A stretch of 64,000 bases of DNA, from assembly GCA_963712735.1 (NCBI GenBank), contig CAVQIZ010000003.1:428855-492854 (forward strand), read 5' to 3'. How positions within the stretch are numbered: the stretch's first letter is position 1; each line of letters opens with the position of its first letter. The stretch is from an uncultured Chloroflexia bacterium. GTDB taxonomy: Bacteria > Chloroflexota > Limnocylindria > Limnocylindrales > CSP1-4. The notes under the pieces are model-generated. The model searched no databases. It was not told the origin of the DNA and was given only the letters and a program-made list of their open reading frames with translations. This document shows, piece by piece, positions 1 to 43,634 of the stretch. Made by a program: the position numbers and the translations under genes.

Positions 1-108
1 GCGGCCGAAGACCGGATCCCCGGCGGCGCCGCTCAGCGCCTGTCCGGTCAGCTGACCGCTCCACAGCATGTCTATGGACCGGATCCGGCACCAGGATCAC
101 CTGGCATC

Positions 109-465
109 ATGACCAGCAAGTGGCAGTACGACGTCGCCTGGAACGGCGAGGTCCAGCTGCCGGACCGCGTCACTCTCGTCATGCATGAAGACCTGCACTT
201 CATGGCCGGCGACGAACGGCACGCCGTGGTGTGCTGGGGCCATGTCACCTTCGAGGATGCCGAGGGATACCTGGTGGGTCCCGTGCACGGCTTCGCTATC
301 GACGGGGACGCTCGACTCCAGGCCATGCTGACGGGTGGCGGGGCGTATGAGGGCATCAATGCCATCGTCACGGGCCCGATCGGCGGAGCAGGTGGCGGCA
401 CCATCGAAGGCCTCGTGTTCGAGGGCTACATGCCACAGGAGCGATTCCTTCCCAGCACCGGCTGA
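109..465 (+). CDS. Fam-2-like hypothetical protein; reading frame stays open to nt 1, so it may be 5'-partial
   Basis: 118-aa ORF. Its tail TGGGAYEGINAIV...IEGLVFEGYMPQE matches the GxGxYEGL...GxIFxGExP tail of six other ORFs in the window. No in-frame stop between nt 1 and 109. Confidence 0.5.
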   Translation: MTSKWQYDVAWNGEVQLPDRVTLVMHEDLHFMAGDERHAVVCWGHVTFEDAEGYLVGPVHGFAIDGDARLQAMLTGGGAYEGINAIVTGPIGGAGGGTIEGLVFEGYMPQERFLPSTG

Positions 466-12784: not shown

Positions 12785-12803
12785 CGATACGAAGGGGGAG
12801 GTC

Positions 12804-13352
12804 GTGCGGAGATGGCAGCTGGCGCTGGCAGGAGGCGCTGCCTTGGGGCTGATCGGGGTGCTGGCCGTTGCGGCAGCAGCGCAGGAACCGATACTCGACC
12901 CACGCGTTACGCTGGTGACAGGGACGGTAACCGGGACGACCACCGACCCTTCCGACGAGGAGTGGTGGGTCGAGGATGCCATCGGCCATGCGCGGGTCTT
13001 CAAGGTCAGCGACGCCGTGGAGTGGAGCGACCCTCGACTGGGGGTCGGTGTCCTGTGGAGCCTGAACTTCGACATGTACGAGATCTCGGTGTCCAAGCAG
13101 ATGCCGTTCACCGGGACCCTGTGGCTCCATGGTCCGGACGGTCACTGGACCGGCACGTCCACCGGGTTCTGCGACCCTGTCGGTGAGTGCACCTCGATGA
13201 TCGTCCTGACCGGACATGACGGCTACGACGGTATGTTCGCGACCATCCTCAACACGGGAAACTCTGAAACGAGCGAGTCCCGCTACGAGGGGATGATCTT
13301 CGAGGGCGAGATGCCGCCGATGCCCGACCAAGTCGAGCCGTCCGCCGATTAA
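12804..13352 (+). CDS. Fam-2 secreted protein
   Basis: GTG start after an AAGGGGGAGG RBS. Signal peptide VRRWQLALAGGAALGLIGVLAVAAAAQ. WSDPRLGVG, LTGHDGYDGMFA, YEGMIFEGEMPPMP. Confidence 0.75.
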   Translation: MRRWQLALAGGAALGLIGVLAVAAAAQEPILDPRVTLVTGTVTGTTTDPSDEEWWVEDAIGHARVFKVSDAVEWSDPRLGVGVLWSLNFDMYEISVSKQMPFTGTLWLHGPDGHWTGTSTGFCDPVGECTSMIVLTGHDGYDGMFATILNTGNSETSESRYEGMIFEGEMPPMPDQVEPSAD

Positions 13353-15223: not shown

Positions 15224-15225
15224 CC

Positions 15226-15323
15226 ATCCTCCGCGCCCTGGTCAGCGGGTCAAGGGCCGGACGGCCCGGCAGTGCGGTCGTCAATGGCCGCGACGACCAA
15301 GCCAAATCCGCTATCCATGGCGG
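15226..15323 (-). repeat. R-element full copy with TTGACC-N16-GAGGAT
   Basis: AGCGGGTCAAGGGCCGGACGGCCCGGC...CAATGGCCGCGACGACCAAGCCAAATCCGCTATCCATGGCG. GGTCAA at 15248-15253 and ATCCTC at 15226-15231 (plus strand). Confidence 0.75.
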
Positions 15324-15508
15324 TTCGCGTTTCGCCCACGGGACGGCGGAACCGTTGGTCACTGACGAGGGTTTCGCACCCCAAGCGGCGTGCAGACGTC
15401 CGGCGGCGAACGTCGGTGATCGCTTCCCAACCCAGGTCCGCGACGGTGGGTGGACGGCCTCCCTGGGTCGCGTCCTTGTCGTGGGGCGGATGGAGGGCCG
15501 TTCGCCAC

Positions 15509-15536
15509 TTGACCGTAGACAACGGGAGCCCACGAT
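15509..15536 (+). promoter_or_regulatory. Promoter candidate TTGACC-N16-CACGAT for the Kelch gene at 15621
   Basis: TTGACC at 15509-15514 and CACGAT at 15531-15536. The hexamer pair is identical to the 10177 promoter. Confidence 0.5.
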
Positions 15537-15620
15537 TCGACCCATCCGACCATCGTGGGAACGGTCATGCGCCCTATCGCGGGGCGCTCGGTCGCCATCA
15601 TGCGATCAGGGGGTGCGGGA

Positions 15621-20112: not shown

Positions 20113-20667
20113 ATGCGCATGCTTCTCGTCTCGTTCGTCGCCGCGGTACTGCTGGCGGGCTCGGCTATGGATGTGGCCGGGCAGCCGGGTGAAGGGTGTG
20201 TCGACGAGGAGTGCATCCTGGCCGAGTTCACCGGCAGCCTGAGGTTCGACATGATGTGCGACGGAGTCGACTCCGCGGGGCTCAGCTGCAATGCCCCCAC
20301 GGTGCTCGAAGCCTTCAGCGACCCCCGACTTCACGGAGATGTCGCAATCACCGGTTGGACCCATGAGATCGGGGATGACTCAGTGCTGTGGCTCGGCTCA
20401 TGGCTGGTCGGCGACTCAGACGCTGGGTGGGTGGAGGTCGCCTCCCCTCGCCTGCGACACCAGAACGGCATACCGACGCAGTACACGAGTGTGCTCGTCG
20501 GCATCGGGGCCTACGAGGGTCTCCACGCGGTCTCCCAGGTGACCGTCAGCGGAGCGGACTTCGACTTCGAGGGCCTCATCGTGGCAGGCAAGATCGAGAC
20601 CACGCCTGGTGCCACCGACTTCTCGGGAGTCATCGCGCCGGGCGATGTGACTGACCTCGACTGGTAG
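20113..20667 (+). CDS. Fam-2 secreted protein
   Basis: MRMLLVSFVAAVLLAGSAMDVAG signal peptide; FSDPRLHGD; GIGAYEGLHAV; GGAGGGAGG RBS. Confidence 0.7.
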   Translation: MRMLLVSFVAAVLLAGSAMDVAGQPGEGCVDEECILAEFTGSLRFDMMCDGVDSAGLSCNAPTVLEAFSDPRLHGDVAITGWTHEIGDDSVLWLGSWLVGDSDAGWVEVASPRLRHQNGIPTQYTSVLVGIGAYEGLHAVSQVTVSGADFDFEGLIVAGKIETTPGATDFSGVIAPGDVTDLDW

Positions 20668-28411: not shown

Positions 28412-28789
28412 TCATGACCAACGGACAGCGACCGCGCACGCAACGAGTGGGCCGACCAGCAGGTAGGTCGAGTAGAACAGCCCTGACGCCACACGTGCGC
28501 CGAGGTGGTGTTTGTCGTGGAACTCGAGGATGCTGAAGAACAGGATCACCGTCGCAAGCCAGCCCAGGAGCGTGCCCACCACCAGCACCACCGGCAAGGC
28601 GAACAGGTTCCACTCGGCAAGGGCGATGACGACTCCGGCGATGGCAGCGACCACGCCGGCCGGGAACCAGCCGATGAACCGCACGACCTGGGTCGAACCG
28701 CCGTCGTCGAGGACGGTGAAGCATGCAGGACAGAGCCGGTCGCCGTGCTCGGTCCGTACTCCGCAATTCAGGCAGCGCGCTGAACGCAT
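28412..28789 (-). CDS. Zn-ribbon (CxxC...CxxC) membrane protein, paralog of 34786..35163
   Basis: MRSARCLNCGVRTEHGDRLCPACF followed by 3-4 hydrophobic helices. Near-identical paralog at 34786. Confidence 0.7.
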   Translation of the reverse strand: MRSARCLNCGVRTEHGDRLCPACFTVLDDGGSTQVVRFIGWFPAGVVAAIAGVVIALAEWNLFALPVVLVVGTLLGWLATVILFFSILEFHDKHHLGARVASGLFYSTYLLVGPLVACAVAVRWS

Positions 28790-28820
28790 GATGAGCTTCT
28801 CGGTATCTCGTGCCGGGACT

Positions 28821-28918
28821 ACGGTCCCGCACCCCATTCATTGGGTCAAGAGCTGGAAGGCATAACGGCTGCCGTCACCATGGCGGCGACGACCAGACCA
28901 AACCCGCTACTCATGGCG
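28821..28918 (-). repeat. R-element full copy with TTGACC-N17-GACCGT
   Basis: GGGTCAAGAGCTGGAAGGCATAACGGCTGCCGTCACCATGGCGGCGACGACCAGACCAAACCCGCTACTCATGGCG. Confidence 0.8.
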
Positions 28919-28925
28919 GTATGGC

Positions 28926-29535
28926 CTAGCCTTCGGTGGGCAGGAACTCGAAGGACTCGGCGATCGCCAGCCACAAGTCGTCGCGACGGGTAGCAGCCAC
29001 GCAGTCCATGAGGTAGTACCAGCCACGGTGTAGCCACTCGAAGGTGGCGTCCTCCTCGGAGCCCGCCGGTCCCTGGGACAGGAACGAGCGTAGTGCATTC
29101 CCAGAGGGCAGAACGATCGGCTCACGACGGACGGCGGCGTAGTACTCCTCGTCCGACTCCTTCCGCATCACCGCAAGGTCCGCCAAGGTCATCTCGTCGC
29201 ATGGCCACGTATCGACGTAGACGTTGTTGCGCCAGTCAGCTGGGTCGCCCGCGAGAAGAGCCGTGGTCATCTGTTGACCGGCTATCACCGACCGCGACTC
29301 GTCGTCGAATTGCTCCATCGCCTCGGCAAGGTCGGGATGCCAGAAGATCGAAGGCGATCCAGTCGTCGGGCACCGAGAGGCCGAAGCCTGCTGGATGGAC
29401 GTGGATGCGCCCGCCAACGACGATGGGAGCATCCGCCTCGCTGTCGGGTGACGGTGTGTCCCACGCCTGGTCGCCGGAGGCGCTGCGGTCGAGCCAGTCG
29501 CCGAACTCCCCAAGGAACGGAGATGGGTGATGCAT
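28926..29535 (-). CDS. Fam-1 protein, frame-disrupted at ~29340 as assembled
   Basis: GGRIHVHPAGFGLSVPDDWIAFDL (ORF 29236..29571) continues in ORF 28926..29636 as HPDLAEAMEQFDDES...DDLWLAIAESFEFLPTEG. Removing one G of CTGGCA restores AFDLLHPDLAEA. Confidence 0.65.
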
Positions 29536-29562
29536 GTCATCCCCTTCGCGTGGCCATCTCTC

Positions 29563-29654
29563 AGTCTCCACGCCACTCTCCAGCGGGTCAAGGGCCGGAC
29601 GGCCGCCCCTGTGCCATGGCGGCGACGACCAGACATAACCCGCTACTCGTGGCG
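29563..29654 (-). repeat. R-element full copy with TTGACC-N17-GAGACT
   Basis: CAGCGGGTCAAGGGCCGGACGGCCGCCCCTGTGCCATGGCGGCGACGACCAGACATAACCCGCTACTCGTGGCG. Confidence 0.8.
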
Positions 29655-29705
29655 GTGCTCAAGCACCAACAGCGAGCACGATGGACGGCGGCGGGACAAT
29701 GGTAC

Positions 29706-29782
29706 GTAGCGGGAGGCAGCGAAACGCGGTCCACACCATGGCCGCCGGGACCGCGCCGAGCCACTGGCGAACCCGGCCCGCC
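29706..29782 (+). repeat. R-element, inverted (B-type) variant upstream of a Fam-2 gene
   Basis: GTAGCGGGAGGCAGCGAAACGCGGTCCACACCATGGCCGCCGGGACCGCGCCGAGCCACTGGCGAACCCGGCCCGCC. GACAAT (-10-like) lies just upstream. Confidence 0.65.
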
Positions 29783-29804
29783 TACAGGCCGAGGAGGCTT
29801 GTCC

Positions 29805-30347
29805 ATGCGCACGTCGCGATCGTTCCTCGTGGGGTTGGGCGCTCTCAGTCTGGTTGCCAGCCTGTCTTTGGCGGTGGTGGCGCAAGACGAAGAGGAGCTG
29901 GAGCCACCCACGGCCACCTTCGTTACGGGGGTCGCGGTCTCCAAACTAGAGGATGTCGACTTCGCCGGGTGGGAGATGGAGTGGAGCGACCCGCGTCTGC
30001 CGTCGCGGGCGCAGTACCGGTTCAGCGCGGAGACAGGGCGGAGCGATCATCCCGACGGGACCGTCATGGCCGCGCAGATGGTGGCGGTGGTGCGGCTCGA
30101 CGGTCCTGATGGCGGCTGGTCCGGGACCGACTGGATCCTGGCATGGACATTGGAACCTGAACCGGGTGAGAAGGGTCGGGACACGTGGATCGAGGTGTTG
30201 ATGCTGGATGGTGACGGCGACTACGAGGGCCTCTCGGCCACGCTCACGAACACCGGCCGTGGAGGTTCCCCCGGCCCCTACGAAGGCTTCATCTTCGAGG
30301 GCGAGTTGCCGCGCATGCCGGACCGGATCGAACCGAACTCCGAGTAG
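29805..30347 (+). CDS. Fam-2 secreted protein
   Basis: MRTSRSFLVGLGALSLVASLSLAVVAQ; WSDPRLPSR; GDGDYEGLSA; YEGFIFEGELPRMP; GAGGAGG RBS. Confidence 0.75.
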   Translation: MRTSRSFLVGLGALSLVASLSLAVVAQDEEELEPPTATFVTGVAVSKLEDVDFAGWEMEWSDPRLPSRAQYRFSAETGRSDHPDGTVMAAQMVAVVRLDGPDGGWSGTDWILAWTLEPEPGEKGRDTWIEVLMLDGDGDYEGLSATLTNTGRGGSPGPYEGFIFEGELPRMPDRIEPNSE

Positions 30348-32750: not shown

Positions 32751-32965
32751 TTCTGGGGCACCGTGACCGCGAAACCGTACTCAGGCATCTCCACCCCATC
32801 ACCGGCCGCGTCGTCAGAGGCGCCGGCAGGCCTGGCCACGATGATCATCAACGCGATGACGACACCGACGGCGACGGTGACCGCGATGACCAGGCGACCC
32901 GTCTTGCTCAGTCCCCATCTCGGAGGGGGGTCTCCGGGGTGGGTGAACCTCCAGCCTTGTGGCAT
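32690..32965 (-). pseudogene. Membrane-anchored Fam-1 remnant truncated by the R-element
   Basis: MPQGW...GRLVIAVTVAVGVVIALMIIVA...EMPEYGFAVTVPQN opens a Fam-1 module (GFAVTVP). It then runs into repeat sequence and stops at the TGA of the repeat's TTGACC. Confidence 0.4.
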
Positions 32966-32971
32966 GCCCCC

Positions 32972-33068
32972 ATCGTCCCCGCCCCGCTCAGCGGGTCAAG
33001 GGCCGGACGGCCCGGCGGCATGCGTGGCCATGGCGGCGACGACCAGACCAAACCCGCTATTCATGGCG
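32972..33068 (-). repeat. R-element, near-consensus full copy with TTGACC-N16-GACGAT, 6 nt before the ATG at 32965
   Basis: CCCCGCTCAGCGGGTCAAGGGCCGGACGGCCCGGCGGCATGCGTGGCCATGGCGGCGACGACCAGACCAAACCCGCTATTCATGGCG. Confidence 0.85.
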
Positions 33069-33192
33069 ATGCTGGAACGGTCCTGGGGAGTGACTTGACG
33101 CGGCCACTAGCCTTGTGGCTCGCGCCGGTCCGGCAGGCAGCAGAAGGCTTGTCCGTCCCCGGATGCACCGCGAGGGCAAAGGAGCATCTTTC

Positions 33193-33759
33193 ATGCGGCC
33201 GATTGAAACCACTGTCGTTTCCATCCTTGCGCTCGGCTTGCTGGCAGGGTCGGCGATCGGGGTCGCGGCGCAGGACGAGGAAGCGCCGGCTGGCGTCACC
33301 AGCTTCACGGGCTCCTTCAGCACGGACGCTGAATGGCCCGATGTGGCAACCGAGACCGAACTCCCGAACGGCTTCTCCGAAACGACCGGTCACGTGAGAC
33401 TGAACAGCTGGGTGTCGAGCGACCCTCGCCTCACCGGGGACGTCGCCACCGTCGTCAACTGGGTCCTCGACCCGGACGGCTTCAGCGCGATGGAGACGGG
33501 TCGCCAGCCCAACATGCTCAACGCGTCCATCACCGAGCTGACCAACGACGGGGGGAGCTGGCTCGGCGAGGGCGTCAGCATGAGCAGCACCGACCTCGAC
33601 GTCGCCACCGACAGCATCATCCTCGTCGGCCGGGACGGATACGAAGGCCTGACGGCCTACGTCCTCGTCGACGGCCGTGAATGGCCGCCCACGTACAGCG
33701 GCGTCATCTTCCCGTCCGCTATGCCCGACGTCCCTGAGGAGCCGTACGCGGGCGAGTAG
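33193..33759 (+). CDS. Fam-2 secreted protein
   Basis: MRPIETTVVSILALGLLAGSAIGVAAQ; SSDPRLTGD; GRDGYEGLTA; YSGVIFPSAMPDVP; AAAGGAG RBS. Confidence 0.75.
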   Translation: MRPIETTVVSILALGLLAGSAIGVAAQDEEAPAGVTSFTGSFSTDAEWPDVATETELPNGFSETTGHVRLNSWVSSDPRLTGDVATVVNWVLDPDGFSAMETGRQPNMLNASITELTNDGGSWLGEGVSMSSTDLDVATDSIILVGRDGYEGLTAYVLVDGREWPPTYSGVIFPSAMPDVPEEPYAGE

Positions 33760-33863: not shown

Positions 33864-33906
33864 GCGAGAATCTGCATAGCGGGAGGCGATGTCGCGCGGC
33901 CCGCGC
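33864..33906 (+). repeat. R-element B-type variant, truncated
   Basis: GCGAGAATCTGCATAGCGGGAGGCGATGTCGCGCGGCCCGCGC. Shares GAGAAT..TAGCGGGAGGCGATG..GCGCGGCCC with 12697-12735 and 2361-2392. Confidence 0.5.
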
Positions 33907-33921
33907 AGCAGGGGGGAAGTC

Positions 33922-34659
33922 ATGCGAAGACTGTCGATCGCGGGAGCCGTCGTGCTGATGTGCCTAATGCTCGGTGGGATGCCGGCGCTGGCGCAGGAGA
34001 CCGCAGACGAAGCGCCAGCCGGACCGGCCATCGTCACCGGCACCGCGGTGTGTGACGAGTTCACGCCGAATCTCTGGTCCGAGACTGCCTGGGGTGGCTA
34101 CGAGCGTGACGATGGCGCCTGGTGCAACGTAGCAGCGAGTGACCCTCGCGTCAGCGGCGACTTCTTCAACACCTACAACGTGGATTGCTATGGGGTGGAG
34201 CCGGATCAGGCGTTCTGCATCTTCCGCGGGGCCTACGTGTTCGATGCGCCGGACGGCGGCTGGGATTGCACGTGGACAGGATCCGACCTGCCGGTGGAGG
34301 AGACCGGCCTGCTCATCACCGGTATCTGCCACGGCACCGGTGGCTACGAGGAACTGACGCACGTCTACCAGCACACCGATGTCGGGTCGTTCGCGGACGG
34401 CAGCAACTACCGCGCCGCCATCTACGAGGGCGAGCCGGTGCCGTTCTCCGAGGTCATCACCGACCCCGTCGCGGTCGTGATCGCGGGCCGGGACGCCGTG
34501 GCCGGCTACATCGTGCTGCCAGCCCTGCAGTACGTGCCGGGGGCGGAGGTCGGCCCCGATGTCTTCACCGACCCCGGCGAACTCAGGGGGCGCAAGGCCG
34601 CGGTGGACATCCCCGCGGGCACACCTATCACGCCCGACCTGCTGGAACCCGCCGAGTAG
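33922..34659 (+). CDS. Fam-2 secreted protein with a SAF-like C-terminal extension
   Basis: MRRLSIAGAVVLMCLMLGGMPALA; ASDPRVSGD; GTGGYEELTH; IYEGEPVPF. Then ...RKAAVDIPAGTPITPDLL is reminiscent of SAF/CpaB-type domains. Confidence 0.7.
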   Translation: MRRLSIAGAVVLMCLMLGGMPALAQETADEAPAGPAIVTGTAVCDEFTPNLWSETAWGGYERDDGAWCNVAASDPRVSGDFFNTYNVDCYGVEPDQAFCIFRGAYVFDAPDGGWDCTWTGSDLPVEETGLLITGICHGTGGYEELTHVYQHTDVGSFADGSNYRAAIYEGEPVPFSEVITDPVAVVIAGRDAVAGYIVLPALQYVPGAEVGPDVFTDPGELRGRKAAVDIPAGTPITPDLLEPAE

Positions 34660-34785: not shown

Positions 34786-35163
34786 TCAAGACCACCGGAT
34801 CGCGACCACGCATGCGACGAGTGGACCGACCAGCAGATATGTGGAGAAGTACAGCCCTGACGCCACGCCTGCACCGAGGTGGTGGTGGGCGTGGAACTCG
34901 AGAAGCCCGAAGAACAGGGCCATGGTGGCGACCCAGCCCAGGAACGTGCCCACCGCCAGCACGATCGGCAGGGCCAACAAGTCCCACTCCGCAAGGGCGA
35001 CGATGACTCCGGCGATGGCGGCAACCACGCCAGCCGGGAACCATCCGATGAACAACACGGCCTGCGTCGAACCGCCGTCGTCGAGGACGGTGAAGCATGC
35101 GCGACAGAGCCGTTCGCCGTACTCCACTCGTGCGCCGCAATTCAGGCAGTGCGCTGAACGCAT
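34786..35163 (-). CDS. Zn-ribbon membrane protein, paralog of 28412..28789
   Basis: MRSAHCLNCGARVEYGERLCRACF plus hydrophobic helices. The 5' leader is also conserved at nucleotide level with the paralog. Confidence 0.7.
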   Translation of the reverse strand: MRSAHCLNCGARVEYGERLCRACFTVLDDGGSTQAVLFIGWFPAGVVAAIAGVIVALAEWDLLALPIVLAVGTFLGWVATMALFFGLLEFHAHHHLGAGVASGLYFSTYLLVGPLVACVVAIRWS

Positions 35164-35194
35164 GATGAGCTTCTCGGTATCTCGTGCCGGGACC

Positions 35195-35284
35195 ACGGTC
35201 CCGCGCACCGGTCAGCGGGTCAAGGGCCGGACGGCCCAGCGGCCACGGCGATGACGACCAGACCAAACCCTCTATACATGGTGG
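35195..35284 (-). repeat. R-element full copy with TTGACC-N17-GACCGT
   Basis: GTCAGCGGGTCAAGGGCCGGACGGCCCAGCGGCCACGGCGATGACGACCAGACCAAACCCTCTATACATGGTGG. Confidence 0.8.
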
Positions 35285-35316: not shown

Positions 35317-36000
35317 CTACTCCTCGGCGGGCAGGAACTCGATGGACTCGGCGATGGCGAGCCAGCGGTCGGCGTGGCGCGTCGCGTCCATGCAGGTCAG
35401 CGAGTAGCCGCGGCCATCGTGCAACAGGAGGTAGACGGTCCTCGCGAGTTCGCCACCCCCGGGGTAGGGCGTCGCATACTCGACCATGCCTGCCCGCCCG
35501 GACGGCAGGTCGACGAAGACGGGCACGGGGTCGGCGGTCGAGTCCACCATGGTCCGCATCGTCAGCAGCTGGGCCGCCACCATGAGGTCGAGTGACGCCG
35601 TGGCTATCGGTTCGACGGCCATGTTGCAGTTCTCGCCGGCGGTCGGCCCATCGAGCGGTGCGAGTGCGATGAGGGGCAGCTCGACGAGCGGATACGCCGC
35701 CGCCAGGTCCGGCGCCACGCTCTCGACGCTGAAGGAGGCCATCGTCGGCGCCAGCGCCGCGGTCAGTTCATCGAAGGACTCCATCGCCGCGCCGAGGCCC
35801 GGGTCCAGGAGGTCGAAGGCGTACCAGCCCTCGGGCACGGTGAGCGCGAAGCCCGCTGAGGGGACCTCGATACGGCCCCCGAGGACGACCGGCCCCGCGT
35901 GCGTTCCGACCTCGGGTGTCGGCGATTGCGCCGTGACAGCGGAGCCACCACCGATGCCCATCAGGCTCAGGACCAGGAACACCACCGTCAGTCGCCGCAT
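35317..36000 (-). CDS. Fam-1 secreted protein (single module)
   Basis: MRRLTVVFLVLSLMGIGGGSAVTA; GGRIEVPSAGFALTVPEGWYAFDLLDPG; C-terminal HADRWLAIAESIEFLPAEE. Confidence 0.8.
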   Translation of the reverse strand: MRRLTVVFLVLSLMGIGGGSAVTAQSPTPEVGTHAGPVVLGGRIEVPSAGFALTVPEGWYAFDLLDPGLGAAMESFDELTAALAPTMASFSVESVAPDLAAAYPLVELPLIALAPLDGPTAGENCNMAVEPIATASLDLMVAAQLLTMRTMVDSTADPVPVFVDLPSGRAGMVEYATPYPGGGELARTVYLLLHDGRGYSLTCMDATRHADRWLAIAESIEFLPAEE

Positions 36001-36029
36001 CCATCCATCCCCACTTGCGATCGCCCCAC

Positions 36030-36126
36030 ATCCTCCGCGCCCGGGCCAGCGGGTCAAGGGCCGGACGGCCCGGCAGTGTGCTGCGCCATGGCGGCGACGA
36101 CCAGACATAACCCGCTATCCATGGCG
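36030..36126 (-). repeat. R-element full copy with TTGACC-N16-GAGGAT
   Basis: CCAGCGGGTCAAGGGCCGGACGGCCCGGCAGTGTGCTGCGCCATGGCGGCGACGACCAGACATAACCCGCTATCCATGGCG. Confidence 0.85.
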
Positions 36127-36302
36127 ATGTCGGCGGCAGGCCTCGCTGAGCCTTGCGGCTTCGCGAGTCTGAGACGACGAGGACCCGGCGGCTGCGTGCA
36201 GCCGGGGCCACAGGCGAGGTCCGTGCTGAGGTGCGCTAGATCCCATAGGGCTTTGTCAAGTCCGTGACCTAGCCGCCACCCTCGCCGGGCGTTGACGAAG
36301 GG

Positions 36303-36331
36303 TGAATAATTCGGGTGTCCCGGTTCGTCTA
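36303..36331 (+). promoter_or_regulatory. ECF-type promoter candidate TGAATA-N17-CGTCTA (possible autoregulation; near-leaderless)
   Basis: TGAATA at 36303-36308 and CGTCTA at 36326-36331, 9 nt before the ATG at 36341. Resembles the TGAAAC-N16/17-CGTxTA class of ECF promoters. Weak, motif-only call. Confidence 0.3.
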
Positions 36332-36340
36332 GTAGTCGTG

Positions 36341-36931
36341 ATGGGGGTCATCGACGTGCTGGATCACCAGCACCGACGGTCGGTCAGCGAGGCAGTGCCG
36401 AGCGCTGTCGTGGACGAGCACGCCCGCCTCGAGCGCGAGCTGGCCTTCCACCGCTTGGTGGACAGGCACCTCGATCGCAGCTACCGCCTGGCGACAGTCG
36501 TGCTGGACAGCACCAGCGAGGCCCAGGACGCTGTCCACGATGCCTTCCTGACCGCATGGCGCAAGTACGACATGCTGCGCGATCCCGACCGCCTCGAAGC
36601 TTGGTTCGACCGCATCGTCGTCAACACCTGCCGTGACCGGATGCGGCGCAATCACCGACTCCAGGTCCGAGACATCTCGGCGGTGCCGGACATCGCAGGC
36701 AGTGATCCGACCGCGGCCGTGTCGGCTGAGGTCGTCATGGAACGCGCCCTCGAGCGGCTCCGGCCCGATGACCGCATCGTGCTCGCGCTGCGCTTCTACC
36801 GCGACATGAAGGTCGACGACATCGCCGCCGCCATGGATATCCGACCGCGTGCTGCGGCCTCGCGCCTCCACCGGGCGCTGGAGCGGCTGCGGCGCATCCT
36901 CGAACAAGACCAGGAGGAGGTCGCCCCATGA
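36341..36931 (+). CDS. ECF (sigma-70 family group 4) RNA polymerase sigma factor
   Basis: Region 2: AQDAVHDAFLTAWRKYDMLRDPDRLEAWFDRIVVNTCRDRMRR. Region 4: LRPDDRIVLALRFYRDMKVDDIAAAMDIRPRAAASRLHRALERLR. Confidence 0.85.
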   Translation: MGVIDVLDHQHRRSVSEAVPSAVVDEHARLERELAFHRLVDRHLDRSYRLATVVLDSTSEAQDAVHDAFLTAWRKYDMLRDPDRLEAWFDRIVVNTCRDRMRRNHRLQVRDISAVPDIAGSDPTAAVSAEVVMERALERLRPDDRIVLALRFYRDMKVDDIAAAMDIRPRAAASRLHRALERLRRILEQDQEEVAP

Positions 36932-37719
36932 TCGAGCGCGACCTCGAGAGCCGGCTTCGGAGCACCTATCGCTCCAGGGCTGGACGAGCAGACCCGGGTG
37001 CGCTCAGCGAGCGCGTGCATTCCATCCCCGCCACGGTCGAGCCGGAGCGCCGGCGCTGGTGGCACGGTTTCGGGTTCGGCGCCTCGCACAGCGCCGGGTC
37101 CGGCGGGGTCGAGGTGAAAGGAGCGAGCAACATGCTTACAGCGACACGTATCGCCGCGATCGTTGCGGTGCTAGCTCTGGGCGCCACGTTCCTGGCTGTT
37201 CAGGTCGGGGTTCCACCCGACACAGCGCAACAGCCCGCGGCGCCGACCGGCGAGACCAGCGCGGCCGTTTCGCACAAGGCGACAGGCTTCACTGGGACGA
37301 GCACGTGGGGCGTGCAGTACGAGGAAGGCCGGGAGTTGGCGGTCGAGGGCAAGGTGTCGCTGCTGGGTGCAGCCTGGCAGATGACCCTCAGCGACATGAG
37401 CGACCCGCGGATGAACGGAACGCTCCGGATCGCCTACAACGAGGACTTCCACGGCGTGCAGGGCCGAGTCTCGTCGTTCTCGACTCGGATCGACAATGAA
37501 CTGGGGTCGTGGCTTGGCACGGGCGACGAGTACTTCGGTACGACCGACATGGATCTGCTCTTCGGCCAAGCGCTTTATCGTGGCACCGGCGCATACGAGG
37601 GCCTCTCGGCCATGGTGTTCATGCAAGGACGAGGCGCCGACGGACTCGGCTACTACGGGATCGTCTTCCCCGGCGAGATGCCCGAGGTGCCGGAGATGCC
37701 GGAACCGCCCGCCGAATAG
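36928..37719 (+). CDS. Anti-sigma-like single-pass membrane protein with an extracytoplasmic Fam-2 domain
   Basis: ATGA overlap with the sigma gene. Cytoplasmic N-terminus, TM RIAAIVAVLALGATFLAV, then MSDPRMNGT, GTGAYEGLSAM, YYGIVFPGEMPEVP. Confidence 0.7.
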   Translation: MIERDLESRLRSTYRSRAGRADPGALSERVHSIPATVEPERRRWWHGFGFGASHSAGSGGVEVKGASNMLTATRIAAIVAVLALGATFLAVQVGVPPDTAQQPAAPTGETSAAVSHKATGFTGTSTWGVQYEEGRELAVEGKVSLLGAAWQMTLSDMSDPRMNGTLRIAYNEDFHGVQGRVSSFSTRIDNELGSWLGTGDEYFGTTDMDLLFGQALYRGTGAYEGLSAMVFMQGRGADGLGYYGIVFPGEMPEVPEMPEPPAE

Positions 37720-37735
37720 TCGCAACAGCCCCCGC

Positions 37736-37768
37736 GGCTGGCTGCCGCGTGCCACGGGGCAGCCAGCC
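37736..37768 (+). terminator. Perfect 11-bp GC hairpin after the anti-sigma gene
   Basis: GGCTGGCTGCC-11 nt-GGCAGCCAGCC, 17 nt after the TAG at 37717-37719. No U-tract follows. Confidence 0.45.
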
Positions 37769-37818
37769 GCCCCTCGGTCAACGGGTCAACGGCGCACCGG
37801 AGCCCGGGCCACCCGTCC

Positions 37819-38008
37819 CCGCTCGTGCTCGCGGCCCTCGGGCCGCGCATGGTCGAGCTGGCGGCCGAGCGTGCACACACCTACTTCGTCCCCGTGGACG
37901 CACTGAGCGTTCGTGCGCGCGCATCTCGGACCTGAGCCGTTCCTCGGCGTCGAGCAGACCGCTGTGCTCAAGAGCGACCGGATCGAGGGGCGGCATATCG
38001 CAGGCTAG
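37819..38008 (+). pseudogene. Remnant of an LLM-class F420-dependent oxidoreductase (internal fragment, frameshifted)
   Basis: PLVLAALGPRMVELAAERAHTYFVPVD, then in another frame AHLGPEPFLGVEQTAVLKSD. Both are typical of the middle of this enzyme family. There is no N-terminal half and no start codon. Confidence 0.4.
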
Positions 38009-38343
38009 ACGACCGGCTCCGCGACGACCTCGATATGGCTCGCCAGCTTGCGGTTGACGATGACCGTCCCGGCATCATGGTGGCGGCGCTGGACGCCCGT
38101 GCCGTACTCGAGCCAGGCCTCGGTCAGCGGGATCATCGGGCCCCCGTCGCGAAACCGGTCTTCGGGGGCCGCGCTGGGCACGGTGTGGACGTAACCACCG
38201 ATGCGGTACTCGCCCGACTCGACGACGACCGGATGGCGGCGAGTCGCCAGGCGGCGGTTCGGGTCTCCGCGCGGACCACTGGCGATGACGGCGAGGATCT
38301 CGGAGCGGCGGACGAGCGTCTCGTCGGCCGACCAGGTGATCAT
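38005..38343 (-). CDS. Hypothetical protein
   Basis: MITWSADETLVRRSEILAVIASG...YRIGGYVHTVPSA...MIPLTEAWLEYG. Protein-like composition, no family recognised, weak RBS. Confidence 0.4.
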   Translation of the reverse strand: MITWSADETLVRRSEILAVIASGPRGDPNRRLATRRHPVVVESGEYRIGGYVHTVPSAAPEDRFRDGGPMIPLTEAWLEYGTGVQRRHHDAGTVIVNRKLASHIEVVAEPVV

Positions 38344-39090
38344 CCTCGGCAAGCCACCTCGCTGGTATCGTCCGGCGCGGCGGGTCCTGCCCGCTGTGAC
38401 CCAAGGGGCGGCCGTTGACGAGAGGGCACGAAGCTCTCTGACCTCGCATCTGGTGGTGCACCTCAAGGGCTGCACGTCAGACCCCCCTCAGGTCATACCG
38501 GCACTCATGAGGCGGTGGCCGCCGCTGAACGGTGAGTCTCAGGGCCTGGACGAGCGCGCGGGACGCGCAGTAGCTGGACCGCGCCATGACCGGCTCGTCT
38601 GCACATGTCCCGCGCACGGATGACTACCGTTCAGGTGGGGCCGTGGAGCACCTTCTATCGCTTCTTCTTGTCCCCCGGCTTCGGGCCGCCCTTGGGCTTC
38701 TTGCTGCCACTCTTGCTACCTGGTCCCTTGTCGCCCACGAGACACCTCCGTATCGGTCAAGGCGTTGTCGAGCCCATTCTGACGCCGTGTGTCGTGTCGG
38801 TGCCAGTCCGTGCAACAGGTCTTCGCAGACCCGCACGACGCGTCGCGATCTTCGCGAGCAGGACCAGCGTGCAGTTGACCTTCGGCCCAACGATCTTGAG
38901 GCGAAGGAAGCGATCGGTATCGCGTCACAGTGCGCGACGACGGGGCGGCCGTGGGGCTGTGGCAGCGGGGTGACCGCTAGTCGTGGCATCGACGCACCCG
39001 TCGACGCGACGGGTGCACGGAAATCCGACTCTTCGCAAGGTCGGGCAGGAGTGGTCCACGCAGTCACCCTCACCACATGATGCCGAATGC

Positions 39091-39864
39091 TCAGAGTGCG
39101 TCGGCGAAGTCATGGACACGGCTGGCCGTGTCTGGGCCGGTGAGGGGGTCGCCGTGCCCGCTGGCGAGGACGCGCGGCTCGAGGCTCGCGATCGTCCTGA
39201 TCGAAGCACGGGCTGCCACGGGATCCGCAGTCGTGTACCAGGGCGGACCGCACAGGCCCTGACGCCCCCGCACCATCCCCGCGAGCGTGTTGACCTGGAG
39301 GGTGACGAGGGCATCACCGGTGATGAGCACACCGTCGTCGGCTCGATAGAACGAGACATGACCGGGCGTGTGCCCGGGTGTATGCACCCATCGCCAGCCG
39401 GGCAGCCACGGGATCCCGCCATCGGGCCCGAGCACCTCGAGGACGGGCGTCAGGCTGTTCCGTTCGAGGATGGCGTCGCGTCGTCGTGGGCCAAGGGCGC
39501 TGATGGCTGGCAGGATGATGTAGCGGTCGAGCGGCCCGGCGTGCCGCCACATCGCAGCGAAGCTACCGCGGGCGATGGCCAGCTCGGCGGGATGGACGAG
39601 CACCTGGCATGCCCAGCGTACGGCGAGCGCGCGCGCGGCCCCCGCATGGTCCGGATGGTCGTGGGTGAGGATGATCGCGGCTGGAGCGGCGTCATGACCG
39701 ACGAGGTCGGCTGCGGCCTCCTGGATGCGGGACAAGTCGCTCTCCCAACCGGCATCGACCAGCACCCACCACTCGCTCGACCGTACGAAGTAGACGTTGG
39801 TCTGCGTGCGACCGTACGGACCCAGACAGTAGACGTCCGGTGCGATCTCGCGGGCCCGATCCAT
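39091..39864 (-). CDS. MBL-fold metallo-hydrolase
   Basis: ILTHDHPDHAG (HxHxDH motif), HTPGHTPGH, GDAL. GGAGG RBS before the internal ATG at 39864. The upstream part of the 429-aa ORF is Arg-rich and looks non-coding. Confidence 0.8.
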   Translation of the reverse strand: MDRAREIAPDVYCLGPYGRTQTNVYFVRSSEWWVLVDAGWESDLSRIQEAAADLVGHDAAPAAIILTHDHPDHAGAARALAVRWACQVLVHPAELAIARGSFAAMWRHAGPLDRYIILPAISALGPRRRDAILERNSLTPVLEVLGPDGGIPWLPGWRWVHTPGHTPGHVSFYRADDGVLITGDALVTLQVNTLAGMVRGRQGLCGPPWYTTADPVAARASIRTIASLEPRVLASGHGDPLTGPDTASRVHDFADAL

Positions 39865-40085
39865 CGCTCGCCTCCGTTGCCTGAGCGACGCCGCAGGCAT
39901 GAGTGGACGCCGCGATGGGACCACGATAGTCATCGAGGGTCGCGCGCGATGGCTTGCCGTGCTTGGGCTGCCCCGGCGGCCGACCGAGGGAACCATCGGC
40001 GCATGGTGTTGGAGCCGGCGCGACCCGTTGACGGTCTTCGTTCTGTCCGGGGCAGCGGACCGATATCGGGGTGCGTCGCCCAGAA

Positions 40086-40256
40086 CTATTCGTCGGTCGA
40101 CCCGGCTCGGGCTTCGCTGATCTCGATCAGATGACCGTCGGGGTCGCGGAAGAACGCGCGCACCTCCCAATCGGAGGCGACCGGCGGCGTCAGGAAGCGA
40201 GCGCCTCGCGCGCGCAGTGCCTCCTTGACCCCGATCGGACCGTTCTCGGCTAGGAC
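40086..40256 (-). pseudogene. C-terminal remnant of a VOC/glyoxalase-family gene
   Basis: Minus-strand translation ...AENGPIGVKEALRARGARFLTPPVASDWEVRAFFRDPDGHLIEISEARAG* has the typical VOC C-terminus (FxDPDGxxIE). No start codon, and the upstream half is missing because it abuts the hisA stop. Confidence 0.4.
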
Positions 40257-40978
40257 GTCCTGGCGGCCTGCAGCGCCTCCGGCAGCGTGAACGCCCCCTC
40301 GTAGAGCGCCTTGCCAGTGATAGCCGCCTCGAAGTGGCGAGCCGCCAGCTCGCGGATGTCGGCAAGGCTGGACACACCACCCGAGGCGATGATGGCTGCC
40401 CCCGGCACCGCCACCCGCACTGACTCCAGCAACTCGTAGTCAGGCCCGCTCATCTGGCCGTCGCGGGCGATGGCCGTGACCGCGAACCAGCGCACACCGG
40501 CTGCCGCAAGCGTCTGTGCCAGCGCGATGACCTCGGCTCCGCGAGCATCCGCCACCCAGCCGTCTCCAAGCGCCCGGCCATCGCGCACGTCGAGCGCCGC
40601 CACGATGCGGTCGGGACCGTAGCGCTCGACCAGGATCCTCGCCAGCAGGGGGCTGCTGATGAGCGCGCTCCCGAGCACCACCCGGGTGGCGCCCGCAGCC
40701 AGGGCGCCCGCCACGCCGTCGGCGTCTCGGATCCCGCCCGCCACCTGGCAGGGCACGTCCACAGCCCCCACGATGGCGGCGATGACATCAGCTTGCATCG
40801 CCCTCCCCTCGCGCGCTGCGTCCAGATCGACGATGTGGATGCGCTCGGCGCCGTCTGCCTGGAACCCACGCGCGACCGCCACGGGATCATCGCCGTACTC
40901 GGTGACCGCGTCATAGGCACCCTTGGAGAGCCGTACCACACGCCCCCCGAGCAGGTCGATGGCCGGGATCAGCTCCAT
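40250..40978 (-). CDS. hisA: ProFAR isomerase HisA
   Basis: MELIPAIDLLGGRVVRL...HIVDLDAA...QVAGGIR...IASGGVSSLADI: a full-length HisA pattern. Confidence 0.9.
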   Translation of the reverse strand: MELIPAIDLLGGRVVRLSKGAYDAVTEYGDDPVAVARGFQADGAERIHIVDLDAAREGRAMQADVIAAIVGAVDVPCQVAGGIRDADGVAGALAAGATRVVLGSALISSPLLARILVERYGPDRIVAALDVRDGRALGDGWVADARGAEVIALAQTLAAAGVRWFAVTAIARDGQMSGPDYELLESVRVAVPGAAIIASGGVSSLADIRELAARHFEAAITGKALYEGAFTLPEALQAARTS

Positions 40979-41065
40979 CGCGGACCGCCGCGCCAGCTGT
41001 GATAGCGTTCTACCATGCTACTATGCTACCATAACGACACGGACCAGCACGCCCAGCAGGAGACC

Positions 41066-41404
41066 ATGAGCACCGACCCCACCGAGTGGCGCTCGGAAGA
41101 CACGAGCGACCTCCTAGACACCATCCTGGCCCTTCCCGACCGGGAGGCGGCCGAGCGCTTCTTCCGCGACCTCTGCACCCTGCGCGAGCTGCACGACCTT
41201 GCGCAGCGGTGGCACGTGGTCCGGCTGCTGGACGACGGCATCCCCTACGCCGAGATCTCGCGCACGACCGGGGCCAGCACCGCCACCGTCACGCGCATCG
41301 CACAGTGGCTCAACCACGGCACCGGCGGCTACCGTGAGGCACTCGACCGCGCAGGAGCCGGCACCGCCGGCGTGGCGGGCCCGGACAAGGCAGGCGACCG
41401 ATGA
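41066..41404 (+). CDS. yerC: YerC/YecD-type TrpR-like DNA-binding protein, first gene of the his operon
   Basis: ...FFRDLCTLRELHDLAQRWHVVRLLDDGIPYAEISRTTGASTATVTRIAQWL is the YerC/YecD signature. Its stop overlaps the hisG ATG (ATGA). Confidence 0.8.
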   Translation: MSTDPTEWRSEDTSDLLDTILALPDREAAERFFRDLCTLRELHDLAQRWHVVRLLDDGIPYAEISRTTGASTATVTRIAQWLNHGTGGYREALDRAGAGTAGVAGPDKAGDR

Positions 41405-42306
41405 TCGCCAGCTCCGACGAGCGCGTCACCGCCTTCCCCGGCAGCGAGTCCGGCCGCCTGCGCCTGGCCATCCCCAACAAGGGCCGCATGCAGGCGCCGT
41501 CGCTGCAGCTGCTTCACGATGCCGGCCTGCGCTTCGAGGATGGCACCCGTGCGCTCACCTCCAAGGTGGACGGCTTCCCGCTGGACATCCTCTTCGTGCG
41601 CACCGACGACATCGTCGAGTTCGTGGCCGACGGCGTGGCCGACCTCGGCATCACCGGCACCAACCTGCTCATCGAGAACGGCGCCGACCTGGAGATCCTG
41701 GTCGAGCTGGGCTACGGCTACTGCCGGCTGGAGGCCGCGGTGCCCAACGACTCGCCGGCGCACTCGCTCGAAGACCTGGCCGGCTTCCGCCTGGCCACCA
41801 GTCACCCGCATGCCGCCGAGACGTCCTTCGCCCAGCGTGGCATCGAGACCGAGATCGTGACCATCAGCGGCGCCGTCGAGGTGGCGCCCGCGATGGGCCT
41901 CGCCGACGGCATCGTGGACCTGGTGTCCAGCGGCTCGACGCTCATCATGAACGGCCTTCGCTCGGTGGGCCCGCTCTTCGCCAGCCAGGCCATCCTCGTG
42001 GGCCGCCCTGATGCCACCCCGGAGGCCGCTGCCATCACGGCCGAGGTGCGCACGATGGTCGAGGCCGTCATCGCCGGCCGCGGCGTGAAGTACCTCATGA
42101 TGAATGCTCCCACCAGCGCCCTGGAGACCATCGAGGCCATCCTGCCCGGGCTCGAATCTCCCAGCGTGCTGCCGCTGGCACACGAAGGCATGCACGCGGT
42201 CCACGCGGTGGTGGGCGCCAACGACGTCCATCGCATCCTCGTCCCGCTGCGTGAAGCCGGCGCCACCGGCATCCTCGTCGTCCCCGTGGAGAAGCTCCTG
42301 CCATGA
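41401..42306 (+). CDS. hisG: ATP phosphoribosyltransferase, long form
   Basis: LRLAIPNKGRM...DILFVRTDDIVEFVADGVADLGITG...LVSSGSTL plus the C-terminal regulatory domain. Confidence 0.92.
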   Translation: MIASSDERVTAFPGSESGRLRLAIPNKGRMQAPSLQLLHDAGLRFEDGTRALTSKVDGFPLDILFVRTDDIVEFVADGVADLGITGTNLLIENGADLEILVELGYGYCRLEAAVPNDSPAHSLEDLAGFRLATSHPHAAETSFAQRGIETEIVTISGAVEVAPAMGLADGIVDLVSSGSTLIMNGLRSVGPLFASQAILVGRPDATPEAAAITAEVRTMVEAVIAGRGVKYLMMNAPTSALETIEAILPGLESPSVLPLAHEGMHAVHAVVGANDVHRILVPLREAGATGILVVPVEKLLP

Positions 42307-43634
42307 CCGACACCTCCGCCCCGACCCTCAGGCGTCTCCGGCTGGCCGAAGCGACCGAGGCCGAGCGTCGGGCACTCACCGACCGCGCCTCCACAGCCAC
42401 GCCGGACATCCGGGCCAGGGCGCGCGCCATCGTCGACAGCATCCGGGCCGGTGGCGATGCGGCGCTGCGCGACGCCAACCGGCGCTTCGGCGGCGGCCTC
42501 ACGGAGCCCACGTCCGCCCCCGCGCTCCGGGTGCCTCGGGCGGAGCTGGAGGCGGCTCGGGATGCGCTGCCGGACGAGCTGCGCGCCGGCCTCGAGCAGA
42601 TGGCGCGCAACATCGAGGCCTTCCATGCCGTCGAGGTGCCGCCCCCGGCGCAATGGGTGGAGACCGAGCCGGGAGTCAACGTGGGTCGGGTCTGGCGCGG
42701 GCTCGACCGGGTCGCCGCCTACGTCCCCGGCGGCACCGCGGCCTACCCCTCGTCCCTGCTGATGAGCGCCATCCCCGCGCGACTCGCGGGTGTCGGTACC
42801 TTCGTCGTCGCCAGCCCGGCGGGTGCCAACGGCGAGCTGTCGCCTGCCCTGCTGGGTGCGGCCGGGCTCATGGAGGTCGAGGAGTTCTGGGTCATGGGCG
42901 GCGCCCAGGCCATCGGGGCGCTGGCCTACGGCACCGAATCGATCGCCCGCGTGGACAAGATCGTGGGCCCCGGCAACGCCTGGGTCACCGCAGCCAAGCT
43001 GGAGGTGCTCGATGCCTGTGCCATCGACATGCCCGCCGGCCCGACCGAGGTCATGGTCGTGGCCGACGACACCGCCGACCCGGTCCACGTGGCTGCCGAC
43101 CTGCTGAGCCAGGCCGAGCACGGTCCCGACTCCCCTTCCCTGCTGGTGACGCCCAGCGAGGCCCTGGCCGACGCGGTCGAGGTCGAGCTGGCCCGGCAGC
43201 TGCCGACGCTCCTTCGTCGCGACACCCTGGCCGAATCGGTCAGGGCAGCGGGCACCGTCGTCATCACCGCCGATATCGACGAGGCGCTGGCCTTCGCCGA
43301 CGCCTACGCACCCGAGCACCTCTCGTGCGTGGTGGCGGACCTCGACGCCGCCCTGGCCGCGCTGAGCCATGCCGGCTCGCTCTTCCTGGGTCCCTACGCG
43401 CCCGAGTCGGCGGGCGACTACGCCGCCGGCTCCAACCACGTGCTGCCCACCGCCGGGGCCGGACGTGCCTACAGCCCGCTGGGCGTGGAGTCGTTCGGAC
43501 GCTGGATGCAGGTCAACCGGGTCACACGTGATGGCCTCGCACGCATCCTGCCGGCCGTCGCCGCGGTGGCGGAGGCTGAGGGCCTGACGGCCCACCGCCG
43601 CGCGGTGGAGATCCGCTTCGAGGACCAGGGCTGA
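42303..43634 (+). CDS. hisD: Histidinol dehydrogenase
   Basis: 443 aa. ...[16 protein letters not shown]...[11 protein letters not shown]...SQAEHGPDS...APEHL... Overlaps hisG by 4 nt. Confidence 0.93.

Follow-up and report, generated by a model that had tools for sequence, protein, structure and literature searches.

An ECF sigma factor gene coupled to a mosaic gene for a putative membrane anti-sigma factor with a predicted beta-barrel sensor in an uncultured Chloroflexia bacterium

The DNA considered here, referred to throughout as the window, is a stretch of 64,000 nucleotides from an uncultured Chloroflexia bacterium (GenBank assembly GCA_963712735.1, contig CAVQIZ010000003.1, positions 428,855 to 492,854 of the forward strand) with a GC content of 0.66-0.74. 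It contains a short operon which comprises a promoter of the extracytoplasmic function (ECF) type, an ECF sigma factor gene and a partner gene for a membrane protein, a candidate anti-sigma factor. The outer part of this partner is a domain of a family named here Fam-2, which is also found in the same genomic island as free secreted proteins. The pair had been noticed in an inspection of the letters and their open reading frames (ORFs), the sequence-only reading. The coordinates of the operon, the free paralogs and the neighbouring features are collected in Table 1.

Table 1. Features of the sigma operon, the free Fam-2 genes and their surroundings (window positions unless another locus is named).
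Feature	Position	Strand	Remarks
ECF-type promoter	36303..36331	+	-35-like TGAATAATTC 36303-36312, 13-nt spacer, -10-like CGTCTA 36326-36331
ECF sigma factor gene	36341..36931	+	196 aa, MGVIDVL...; Pfam r2 and r4_2, TIGR02937; start set by orthologs
Cytoplasmic N-terminal module, putative anti-sigma part	36928..37140	+	aa 1-71; predicted helices 2-20 and 23-31; motif IPATVEPERRRWWHGF
Single transmembrane helix, N-terminus inside	37141..37206	+	~aa 72-93; predicted helix 73-90; hydrophobic, arginines N-terminal to the stretch
Recombination junction	37245..37257	+	codons ~106-110, ...PTGET / SAAVSHKATGFTG; DNA identities switch partner
Fam-2 sensor domain, then stop codon	37258..37719	+	aa 111-263; predicted 8-stranded beta-barrel
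3' flank co-inherited with the sensor	37720..37793	+	hairpin GGCTGGCTGCC...GGCAGCCAGCC; L019 DNA match runs past the stop
Free secreted Fam-2 paralog	12804..13352	+	c-di-GMP-II-GAG aptamer 12705-12790 upstream
Free divergent Fam-2 paralog	20113..20667	+	weak by blastp; HMM E 1.4e-33, copy itself in the HMM seed
Free secreted Fam-2 paralog	29805..30347	+	c-di-GMP-II-GAG aptamer 29703-29787 upstream; divergent from Fam-1 and Zn-ribbon genes
Free secreted Fam-2 paralog	33193..33759	+	of the window's free copies, the one nearest to the sensor (31 % identity, E 4e-13)
Free Fam-2 paralog with extra C-terminal SAF segment	33922..34659	+	Pfam SAF E 1.4e-6
Fam-2-like C-terminal half	1..465	+	ORF open at the left window edge; no SDPR motif
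Riboswitch aptamers elsewhere	L019 9901-9986; L008 9386-9472; L009 1809-1892, 12024-12108; L013 18203-18288, 19712-19798		
Zn-ribbon membrane protein and Fam-1 secreted protein genes, pair near sigma	34786-35208 and 35317-36000	-	paralogous to 28412-29636
Zn-ribbon and Fam-1 genes, other pair	28412-28837 and 28926-29636	-	divergent from Fam-2 29805..30347
Last copy of the ~125-nt island repeat	36021..36134	-	upstream of the Fam-1 gene; divergent orientation to the sigma promoter

Judged by its sequence, the product of the first gene is a genuine ECF (group 4) sigma factor. It matches Pfam Sigma70_r2 (8.7e-12) and Sigma70_r4_2 (6.6e-12), no Pfam match to regions r3 or r1 was found in the ORF, and NCBIfam TIGR02937 (sigma70-ECF) is passed with 71.8 bits against a cutoff of 42.9, all of which bears out the earlier claim that an ECF sigma gene is present. 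None of the specific equivalog or subfamily models of NCBIfam among its best 25 matches reaches the respective cutoff, the top one being TIGR02983 (SigE-fam_strep; 99.4 bits, under the cutoff of 141.55), and a literature search found no description of this sigma group. Its sequence relatives of solved structure in the PDB are SigE and SigL of Mycobacterium tuberculosis, sigma-E (RpoE) of Escherichia coli and SigW of Bacillus subtilis. In the ORF listing the gene is contained in a longer, GTG-started frame (36302-36931). Comparison with related loci rules out GTG 36302 as the start: in locus L012 a 1-nt insertion breaks the upstream reading frame, the changes in the spacer are not of the synonymous type, and the stretch read as codons yields invariant AT-ending triplets, which are unusual given the gene's GC content at third codon positions (GC3) of ~0.83. 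On these grounds the stretch before ATG 36341 is taken to be non-coding and the sigma factor to start there.

The promoter lies in this same stretch. The sequence-only reading had noted a weak ECF-type motif, TGAATA-N17-CGTCTA, before the sigma gene; the motif itself stands, but the word weak does not, since the boxes are invariant, and only their spacer varies, across nine related loci and the window. The location also needed a qualification: the motif falls inside the GTG-36302 ORF, yet ortholog comparison makes this part non-coding, so that it does precede the true start. The box pair TGAATGATTC-N13-CGTCTA is found at a fixed distance from the sigma ATG in the window, in eight of nine genome loci and in L018; upstream of the sigma gene of L016 the conserved motif was not found. 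A fuller conserved arrangement in the nine related loci reads TTGACG-N4-GTGAATGATTC-N13-CGTCTAGT(A/G)GTCG(T/A)G-ATGGGGGTCATCGA. Because the -10-like box ends only 9 nt before ATG 36341, the transcript probably carries no leader or a very short one, and the sequence suggests that the promoter is probably autoregulated. No sigma-70-type promoter was found in 35900-38100. With up to three mismatches the extended motif has no second site in the window, and this, together with the wider search mentioned below, agrees with the observation already made that the motif is missing before other island genes. In a metagenome motif scan the matches listed were mostly chance matches in unrelated DNA; the genuine ones among them, L025 and L058, are both autoregulatory sites.

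The partner gene (ORF 36928-37719) encodes a single-pass membrane protein of 263 aa and overlaps the sigma stop codon by ATGA, as had been reported and as is seen in the ORF listing. The architecture proposed at that time, a cytoplasmic segment followed by one transmembrane (TM) helix and a Fam-2 domain, agrees with the predicted topology and with profile comparison; a Pro/Ala-rich linker after the TM helix reaches ~aa 110. The Fam-2 domain is placed outside the cytoplasm because the free paralogs carry Sec-type signal peptides. A sigma gene lies directly upstream of the partner in 11 of 11 other distinct related loci (L001, L004/L005, L007, L008-L016, L017 and L018 were examined, where L001=L010, L004=L015 and L007=L008), those with a named source being from metagenome-assembled genomes (MAGs) of uncultured Chloroflexota (Chloroflexia or Anaerolineaceae). 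The 4-bp overlap was read from the called genes of L001, L004/L005, L007, L017 and L018, and in L008-L016 the sigma stop coincides with the partner start. This holds also for L016 (10001-10081), in which the orthologous partner gene is broken after 27 codons, either by decay or by an assembly error. The full-length architecture is kept in ~50 metagenomic homologs. The best conserved part of the protein is its N-terminus, with the consensus MNERDLETRLRxxYRSxAxRADPGALxERVHSIPATVEPERRRWWH; its identity to the closest orthologs is 79-83 %, as opposed to 35-40 % in the sensor domain. In another protein encoded next to a sigma gene, a related N-terminus/TM module (37 % identity, E 1e-20) is followed by an outer domain of a different, beta-propeller-like kind, and the Fam-2 domain is placed behind at least three types of N-terminal module, with a sigma gene adjoining each. 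The core of the sequence-only reading, an ECF sigma factor coupled to a membrane protein with an outer Fam-2 domain, is therefore upheld by domain searches, profile-profile comparison, topology and the 11 loci.

That the outer domain is homologous to the free Fam-2 proteins had also been claimed, and the profile-profile comparison named beforehand as the check supports it, for which reason the homology is regarded as real. The profile of the fused family and that of 51 free, signal-peptide-bearing members were aligned by hhalign with a probability of 99.5 % (E 1.2e-22), and a hidden Markov model (HMM) of the free family, from which the fused protein had been left out, matches the fused ORF at E 3.8e-28. 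By blastp, the fused protein matches the window ORFs 33115-33759 (4e-13), 29274-30347 (2e-7), 12726-13352 (1e-3), 33889-34659 (2e-3), 109-465 (6e-3) and 20113-20667 (0.1); the free copies of the window are 20-31 % identical to the sensor. The signature described earlier (SDPR, GxGxYEGL, GxIFxGExP) is present in the alignments of both the fused and the free families, the TG, SDPR, W, G and Y positions are invariant in an alignment of six copies of the domain, and the motif set of the family can be written as VTG, SDPRL, GxW, GxGxYEGL and GxIFxGExP. The family is large: a profile search retrieved 1,875 clusters (50 % identity) at E up to 1e-3, 600 of them at E up to 1e-10. When the best 150 representatives were classified by simple hydrophobicity, 60 had a signal peptide and one Fam-2 domain, 21 a signal peptide and two tandem domains, and 36 the anti-sigma-like order of cytoplasmic segment, TM helix and Fam-2 domain(s), the other 33 being fragments or unclear. 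Despite this size, none of the 51 members matches a Pfam family in this domain, including DUF3224, Allene_ox_cyc and Dirigent, the Fam-2 profile has no matches in the PDB, neither a Pfam or NCBIfam family nor a PDB sequence relative was found for the whole 36928-37719 product, and a literature search found no description of the domain family. Two tandem Fam-2 domains occur as well in some anti-sigma-like proteins (P0056, of 433 aa, and 9 of the 150 best representatives). In one MAG, that of L015, further Fam-2 genes lie at 10815-11429, 14382-15624 (equal to L004 10382-11624) and 19212-20288: one is directly downstream of the partner ortholog, another belongs to a second ECF sigma/Fam-2 anti-sigma-like pair with a different N-terminal module 4 kb away, and the third is a free copy 9 kb away.

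The fold of the domain was predicted with AlphaFold2 (AF2). The model of the fused protein, made from an alignment of 33 sequences, starts with helices 2-20 and 23-31 and passes through a disordered part to a TM helix (73-90); an all-beta domain follows at 119-248, composed of eight strands with a predicted local confidence (pLDDT) mostly above 90. The free copy 33193-33756, modelled from 51 sequences, forms the same barrel (mean pLDDT 88, above 90 in the barrel). Searches of the PDB with Foldseek paired the sensor model with the DUF3224 protein 2q03 (TM-score 0.81-0.82, normalised to the target; root-mean-square deviation 2.5 A) and the free-copy model with 2q03 and 2ooj, also DUF3224 (TM-score 0.64-0.76). 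Both models recovered the same set of proteins: DUF3224, allene oxide cyclases (AOC), the spirotetronate Diels-Alderases AbyU, PyrI4, Cyc15 and PloI4, and the pyocyanin demethylase PodA. On these models, the resemblance of Fam-2 to the DUF3224/AOC/AbyU proteins is one of fold and not of family membership. Solved barrels of this type enclose small, mostly hydrophobic molecules, and by analogy the Fam-2 barrel may bind a small-molecule ligand.

There is clear evidence in the DNA identities that the partner gene is a mosaic, with a 5' block like that of its orthologs and a 3' block like that of a free Fam-2 gene. The 5' block, window 36269-37244, which includes the promoter, the sigma gene and the N-terminus, TM helix and linker of the partner, is 91.6 % identical to L008 and 90.6 % identical to L009. 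From 37257 to 37793, that is, over the sensor and 74 nt past its stop codon, the window is instead 92.2 % identical to L019 10084-10620, which corresponds to the portion of the free gene P0002 for the mature domain, together with the gene's 3' flank. The flank in the window shows no canonical T-run terminator. At the protein level, the sensor and the mature part of the free secreted P0002 share 90.8 % identity, and the mature parts of P0002-P0004, P0010, P0019 and P0027, all free secreted proteins of 181-185 aa with signal peptides, are 53-91 % identical to the sensor; the orthologous partner proteins carry a different Fam-2 subtype. The junction matches exactly the end of the signal-peptide region of P0002, which is also the boundary between linker and mature domain. 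L019 belongs to a sister genome, whose his operon region shares 95.8 % identity with window 40241-43232, and there P0002 is preceded by an opposite-strand Fam-1 gene and a c-di-GMP-II-GCG aptamer, the same arrangement as at 28.4-30.3 kb of the window. The fused gene has an intact frame and normal codon bias (GC3 0.81). Its 90 %-identity cluster contains nine distinct sequences, eight of them full-length (263 aa), and since these variants occur in NCBI, ENA, JGI and Logan assemblies the chimera is not an assembly artefact. The simplest reading of these identities is that, in a free Fam-2 gene, a constant cassette of sigma gene and anti-sigma N-terminus took the place of riboswitch and signal peptide before the mature part, and the exchange appears to be recent. 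This fits the earlier suggestion of a sigma gene inserted ahead of a free Fam-2 gene, whose product thereby became membrane-tethered, the direction of the event being the inferred part.

The free copies announced at 12804, 20113, 29805, 33193 and 33922 were all recovered by blastp or tblastn and by HMM. For the copy at 109, described as partial-looking, the similarity to Fam-2 holds (6e-3) and the SDPR motif is absent; its ORF is open to the left window edge, and the copy may be truncated. Three c-di-GMP-II-GAG aptamers (RF03169) were detected in the window, with 58.5, 58.2 and 44.2 bits against an Rfam gathering score of 40. Two of them end 14-18 nt before the Fam-2 starts 12804 and 29805 on the plus strand, and the third (2362-2449, plus strand) precedes the gene of another small secreted protein. 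The sister type, c-di-GMP-II-GCG (RF03170), is found above the gathering score in L008, L009, L013 and L019, and taken together the aptamers of the window and L019 precede genes of small secreted proteins, including three Fam-2 genes. The presence of these aptamers indicates that an intracellular ligand controls such free paralogs, in contrast to the fused copy with its ECF promoter. The ligand of the GAG and GCG variants is not known to have been established.

All these features are most simply explained, and in our view with good likelihood, by an ECF sigma factor and its cognate membrane anti-sigma factor, for both of which the conserved ECF-type promoter drives a single, translationally coupled unit. 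According to this model, the cytoplasmic N-terminus of the partner, formed by two helices and the IPATVEPERRRWW segment, would sequester the sigma factor, and the TM helix would put the Fam-2 domain, an 8-stranded barrel of the AOC/DUF3224/AbyU fold type, outside the cell. Binding of a ligand to the barrel, or damage to it, would free the sigma factor through proteolysis or a conformational change. The freed sigma factor would then transcribe its own operon, from a promoter that is probably positively autoregulated, and further targets. Several observations weigh against this model. The N-terminus of the partner has no match in Pfam or NCBIfam at E up to 1, class I anti-sigma domain models included, and none among PDB sequences at E up to 10; it lacks the Hx3Cx2C zinc motif, residues 1-110 being devoid of cysteine; and the AF2 monomer shows two N-terminal helices where the class I domain has ~4. 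On the side of the targets, the extended promoter motif, with up to three mismatches, occurs only at the sigma genes' own sites in ~271 kb (window plus related loci). On the side of the sensor, the Foldseek E-values are weak (4e-3 to 1e-2, at ~12 % identity), and the proposed ligand binding has analogy as its basis. Furthermore, recombination among island paralogs is common, so that the direction of the swap is inferred rather than proven; for example, the Fam-1 and riboswitch region of L019 matches window 28.8-29.8 kb, and the L019 Fam-2 gene matches 37.26-37.79 kb. Because the N-terminus matches no known anti-sigma model, the label of anti-sigma factor comes from context and conservation; on this basis the partner probably does act as one.

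The strongest alternative, although still an improbable one, is that the partner is a co-expressed output of the sigma factor, an effector or positive co-factor in which a membrane-tethered Fam-2 domain works like the free paralogs and inhibits nothing, the conserved N-terminus serving for membrane targeting or for another partner. The failure to detect a known anti-sigma domain fits this reading, as do the facts that the domain is mostly a free secreted one (a signal peptide is present in 81 of the best 150 representatives) and that the sensor could be replaced by the domain of a free paralog without loss of the gene. However, an effector of this kind does not account well for the N-terminal 50 aa, cytoplasmic, most conserved and always tied to sigma by gene overlap, nor for the joining of such N-terminal modules to unrelated outer domains beside other sigma genes, which is a hallmark of anti-sigma modularity. 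The missing HMM match is not unusual either, since a partner with a class I anti-sigma domain is present for no more than about one third of ECF sigma factors, and about two thirds are without one (PMC7406223).

A second alternative would make the free Fam-2 proteins decoys or competitors for the same cue, or else ligands or partners of the sensor, so that the ECF pair reads the secreted Fam-2 pool. It draws on the domain family common to the sensor and the free proteins, on the 91 % identity of the sensor to a free secreted protein of the sister genome, and on the Fam-2 gene located immediately downstream of the anti-sigma gene in L015. We regard it as very unlikely, as the free copies of the window itself are only 20-31 % identical to the sensor and lack the sigma promoter, and for two of them the input is another one, a riboswitch. 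Least credible of all is a chance, decaying chimera or an assembly artefact, to which the sharp breakpoint, the frequent recombination in the island and the interrupted L016 ortholog would lend themselves, but not the intact frame with its normal codon bias, the nine sequences at 90 % identity or more (eight full-length) in independent assemblies from four sources, or a junction placed exactly at the linker/mature-domain boundary.

As an ECF sigma factor with a single-pass anti-sigma factor, the kind of system is itself ordinary. It resembles RpoE-RseA, SigW-RsiW, SigK-RskA and SigD-RsdA in its two-domain sigma factor, in the downstream co-transcribed gene that overlaps the sigma stop, in the order of the partner's parts (an N-terminal module in the cytoplasm, then one TM helix, then a sensor outside), and in the conserved -35 and -10 elements before the sigma gene. 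Unlike these pairs, it has an N-terminal module with neither a class I model match nor a zinc motif, predicted as two helices and an extended conserved segment, a sensor from an uncharacterised beta-barrel family, and a sigma factor below the cutoffs of the specific NCBIfam models among its best 25 matches. The very short cytoplasmic region (here a putative sigma-binding one) of approximately two helices followed by a TM helix is reminiscent of the class II type represented by CnrY; nonetheless, there is no sequence relationship, and CnrY uses a separate periplasmic sensor, CnrX, while here the sensor is fused. With the DUF3224, AOC, dirigent, AbyU/PyrI4 and PodA proteins Fam-2 shares a predicted 8-stranded antiparallel barrel of ~130-150 aa, for which the top TM-scores to 2q03 and 2ooj range over 0.66-0.82, but it differs from the DUF3224/AOC/AbyU barrels in its low identity, in its own motifs and in being secreted or membrane-tethered. 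Where free paralogs have a c-di-GMP-II-GAG or -GCG riboswitch and a signal peptide, the fused gene has the sigma cassette instead. Three traits are unusual: an N-terminal module outside the known anti-sigma models, a sensor from a large, unannotated barrel family shared with many secreted paralogs, and clear evidence of a recent exchange with a riboswitch-controlled free paralog.

Most ECF sigma factors are still without a known signal. Within this frame Fam-2, with its ~1,875 clusters and no Pfam entry, is used both as secreted protein and as anti-sigma sensor, and its predicted small-molecule-binding barrel offers a concrete handle for ligand finding. The mosaic gene, an apparently recent and naturally fixed sensor exchange, illustrates how ECF pathways may gain new inputs, and the association of free paralogs with riboswitches adds gene context for the c-di-GMP-II-GAG and -GCG variants. 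In addition, the invariant promoter and the probably leaderless start make the pair a candidate orthogonal sigma/promoter pair and a compact test system. A more speculative idea, which we consider rather unlikely, is that the diversifying, riboswitch-controlled secreted barrels of the island double as a library of sensor modules, pluggable onto the constant sigma/anti-sigma-N cassette at the signal-peptide/linker boundary. If this were true, recombination would rapidly re-aim the ECF pathway at the ligand of a free protein, and one system for sensing or handling extracellular small molecules in soil Chloroflexota would unite the ECF pair with the free proteins and the orphan c-di-GMP-II-variant riboswitch.

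With respect to the surroundings of the operon, the sequence-only reading had described a synteny shared by two sets of genes, each composed of a Zn-ribbon membrane protein, a Fam-1 protein and a divergent Fam-2 gene. The identities of the paralogs are in accordance with it, the two Zn-ribbon proteins being 80 % identical and the two Fam-1 proteins 31 % (E 2e-14). In L018 (1-4232), the sigma/partner pair adjoins a run of toxin-antitoxin genes (PhdYeFM, PIN, PemK), for which reason its surroundings there resemble a genomic island. Ahead of the sigma promoter, window 36038-36239 is an inverted match (84-86 %) to L009 10738-10940 and L008 6956-7107, stretches of ~200 nt which in these loci lie downstream of the anti-sigma gene; this suggests that in the window genome the cassette with the sigma gene has been turned round with respect to the repeat array. 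Downstream, the two sister genomes have different DNA from the sensor gene to the his operon (window 37794-40240, L019 10621-17552): the window has a 156-aa ORF without assigned family (38005-38475, minus strand) and a gene of the metallo-beta-lactamase fold (39091-40380, minus strand), and L019 an IS110-family transposase and other genes.

The repeat array just mentioned is formed by an island repeat of ~125 nt, of which ~23 copies at E <1e-6 occupy window 9482-36134 in a single orientation (minus strand; for instance 32958-33082 and 15213-15336), mostly just upstream of minus-strand island genes that belong to unrelated families. Arrays in one orientation also surround the orthologous sigma loci, with 14 copies in L009 and others in L008/L007, and blastn shows many copies in L019. 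The consensus, CCGCCATGnATAGCGGGTTtgGTCTGGTCGTCGCCGCCATGGCG...GGGCCGTCCGGCCC-TTGACC-N16-GAnnAT, looks like a shared promoter/operator module, in which a 14-bp palindrome abuts the -35-like TTGACC. A structured RNA was rejected, as RNAalifold gave essentially no consensus structure for 25 copies (-2.5 kcal/mol) and Rfam no match at E up to 1. An integron attC site was likewise discarded: no integrase was present in ten further window ORFs scanned, and the repeat consensus, as read from alignments, showed no correctly ordered RYYYAAC...GTTRRRY pair; the repeat sits, moreover, 5' of genes. The loose motif TGAAT-N17-19-CGTC matched four repeat copies against a chance expectation of 0.9. Nevertheless, these are copies of one repeat, only 9 of the 19 conserved promoter positions agree, the second A of TGAAT differs among copies and the L007/L008 copy reads TGTAT...CATC, so that the repeat was set aside as target promoter of the sigma factor, a role which the sequences make quite unlikely. 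Finally, the island encodes three Kelch-repeat beta-propeller proteins with internal repeats of ~144 nt (9883-12405 and 15555-17699, plus strand; 25490-26647, minus strand), the first of which ends with a Fam-1-like C-terminal motif (...TIELLPAAE).

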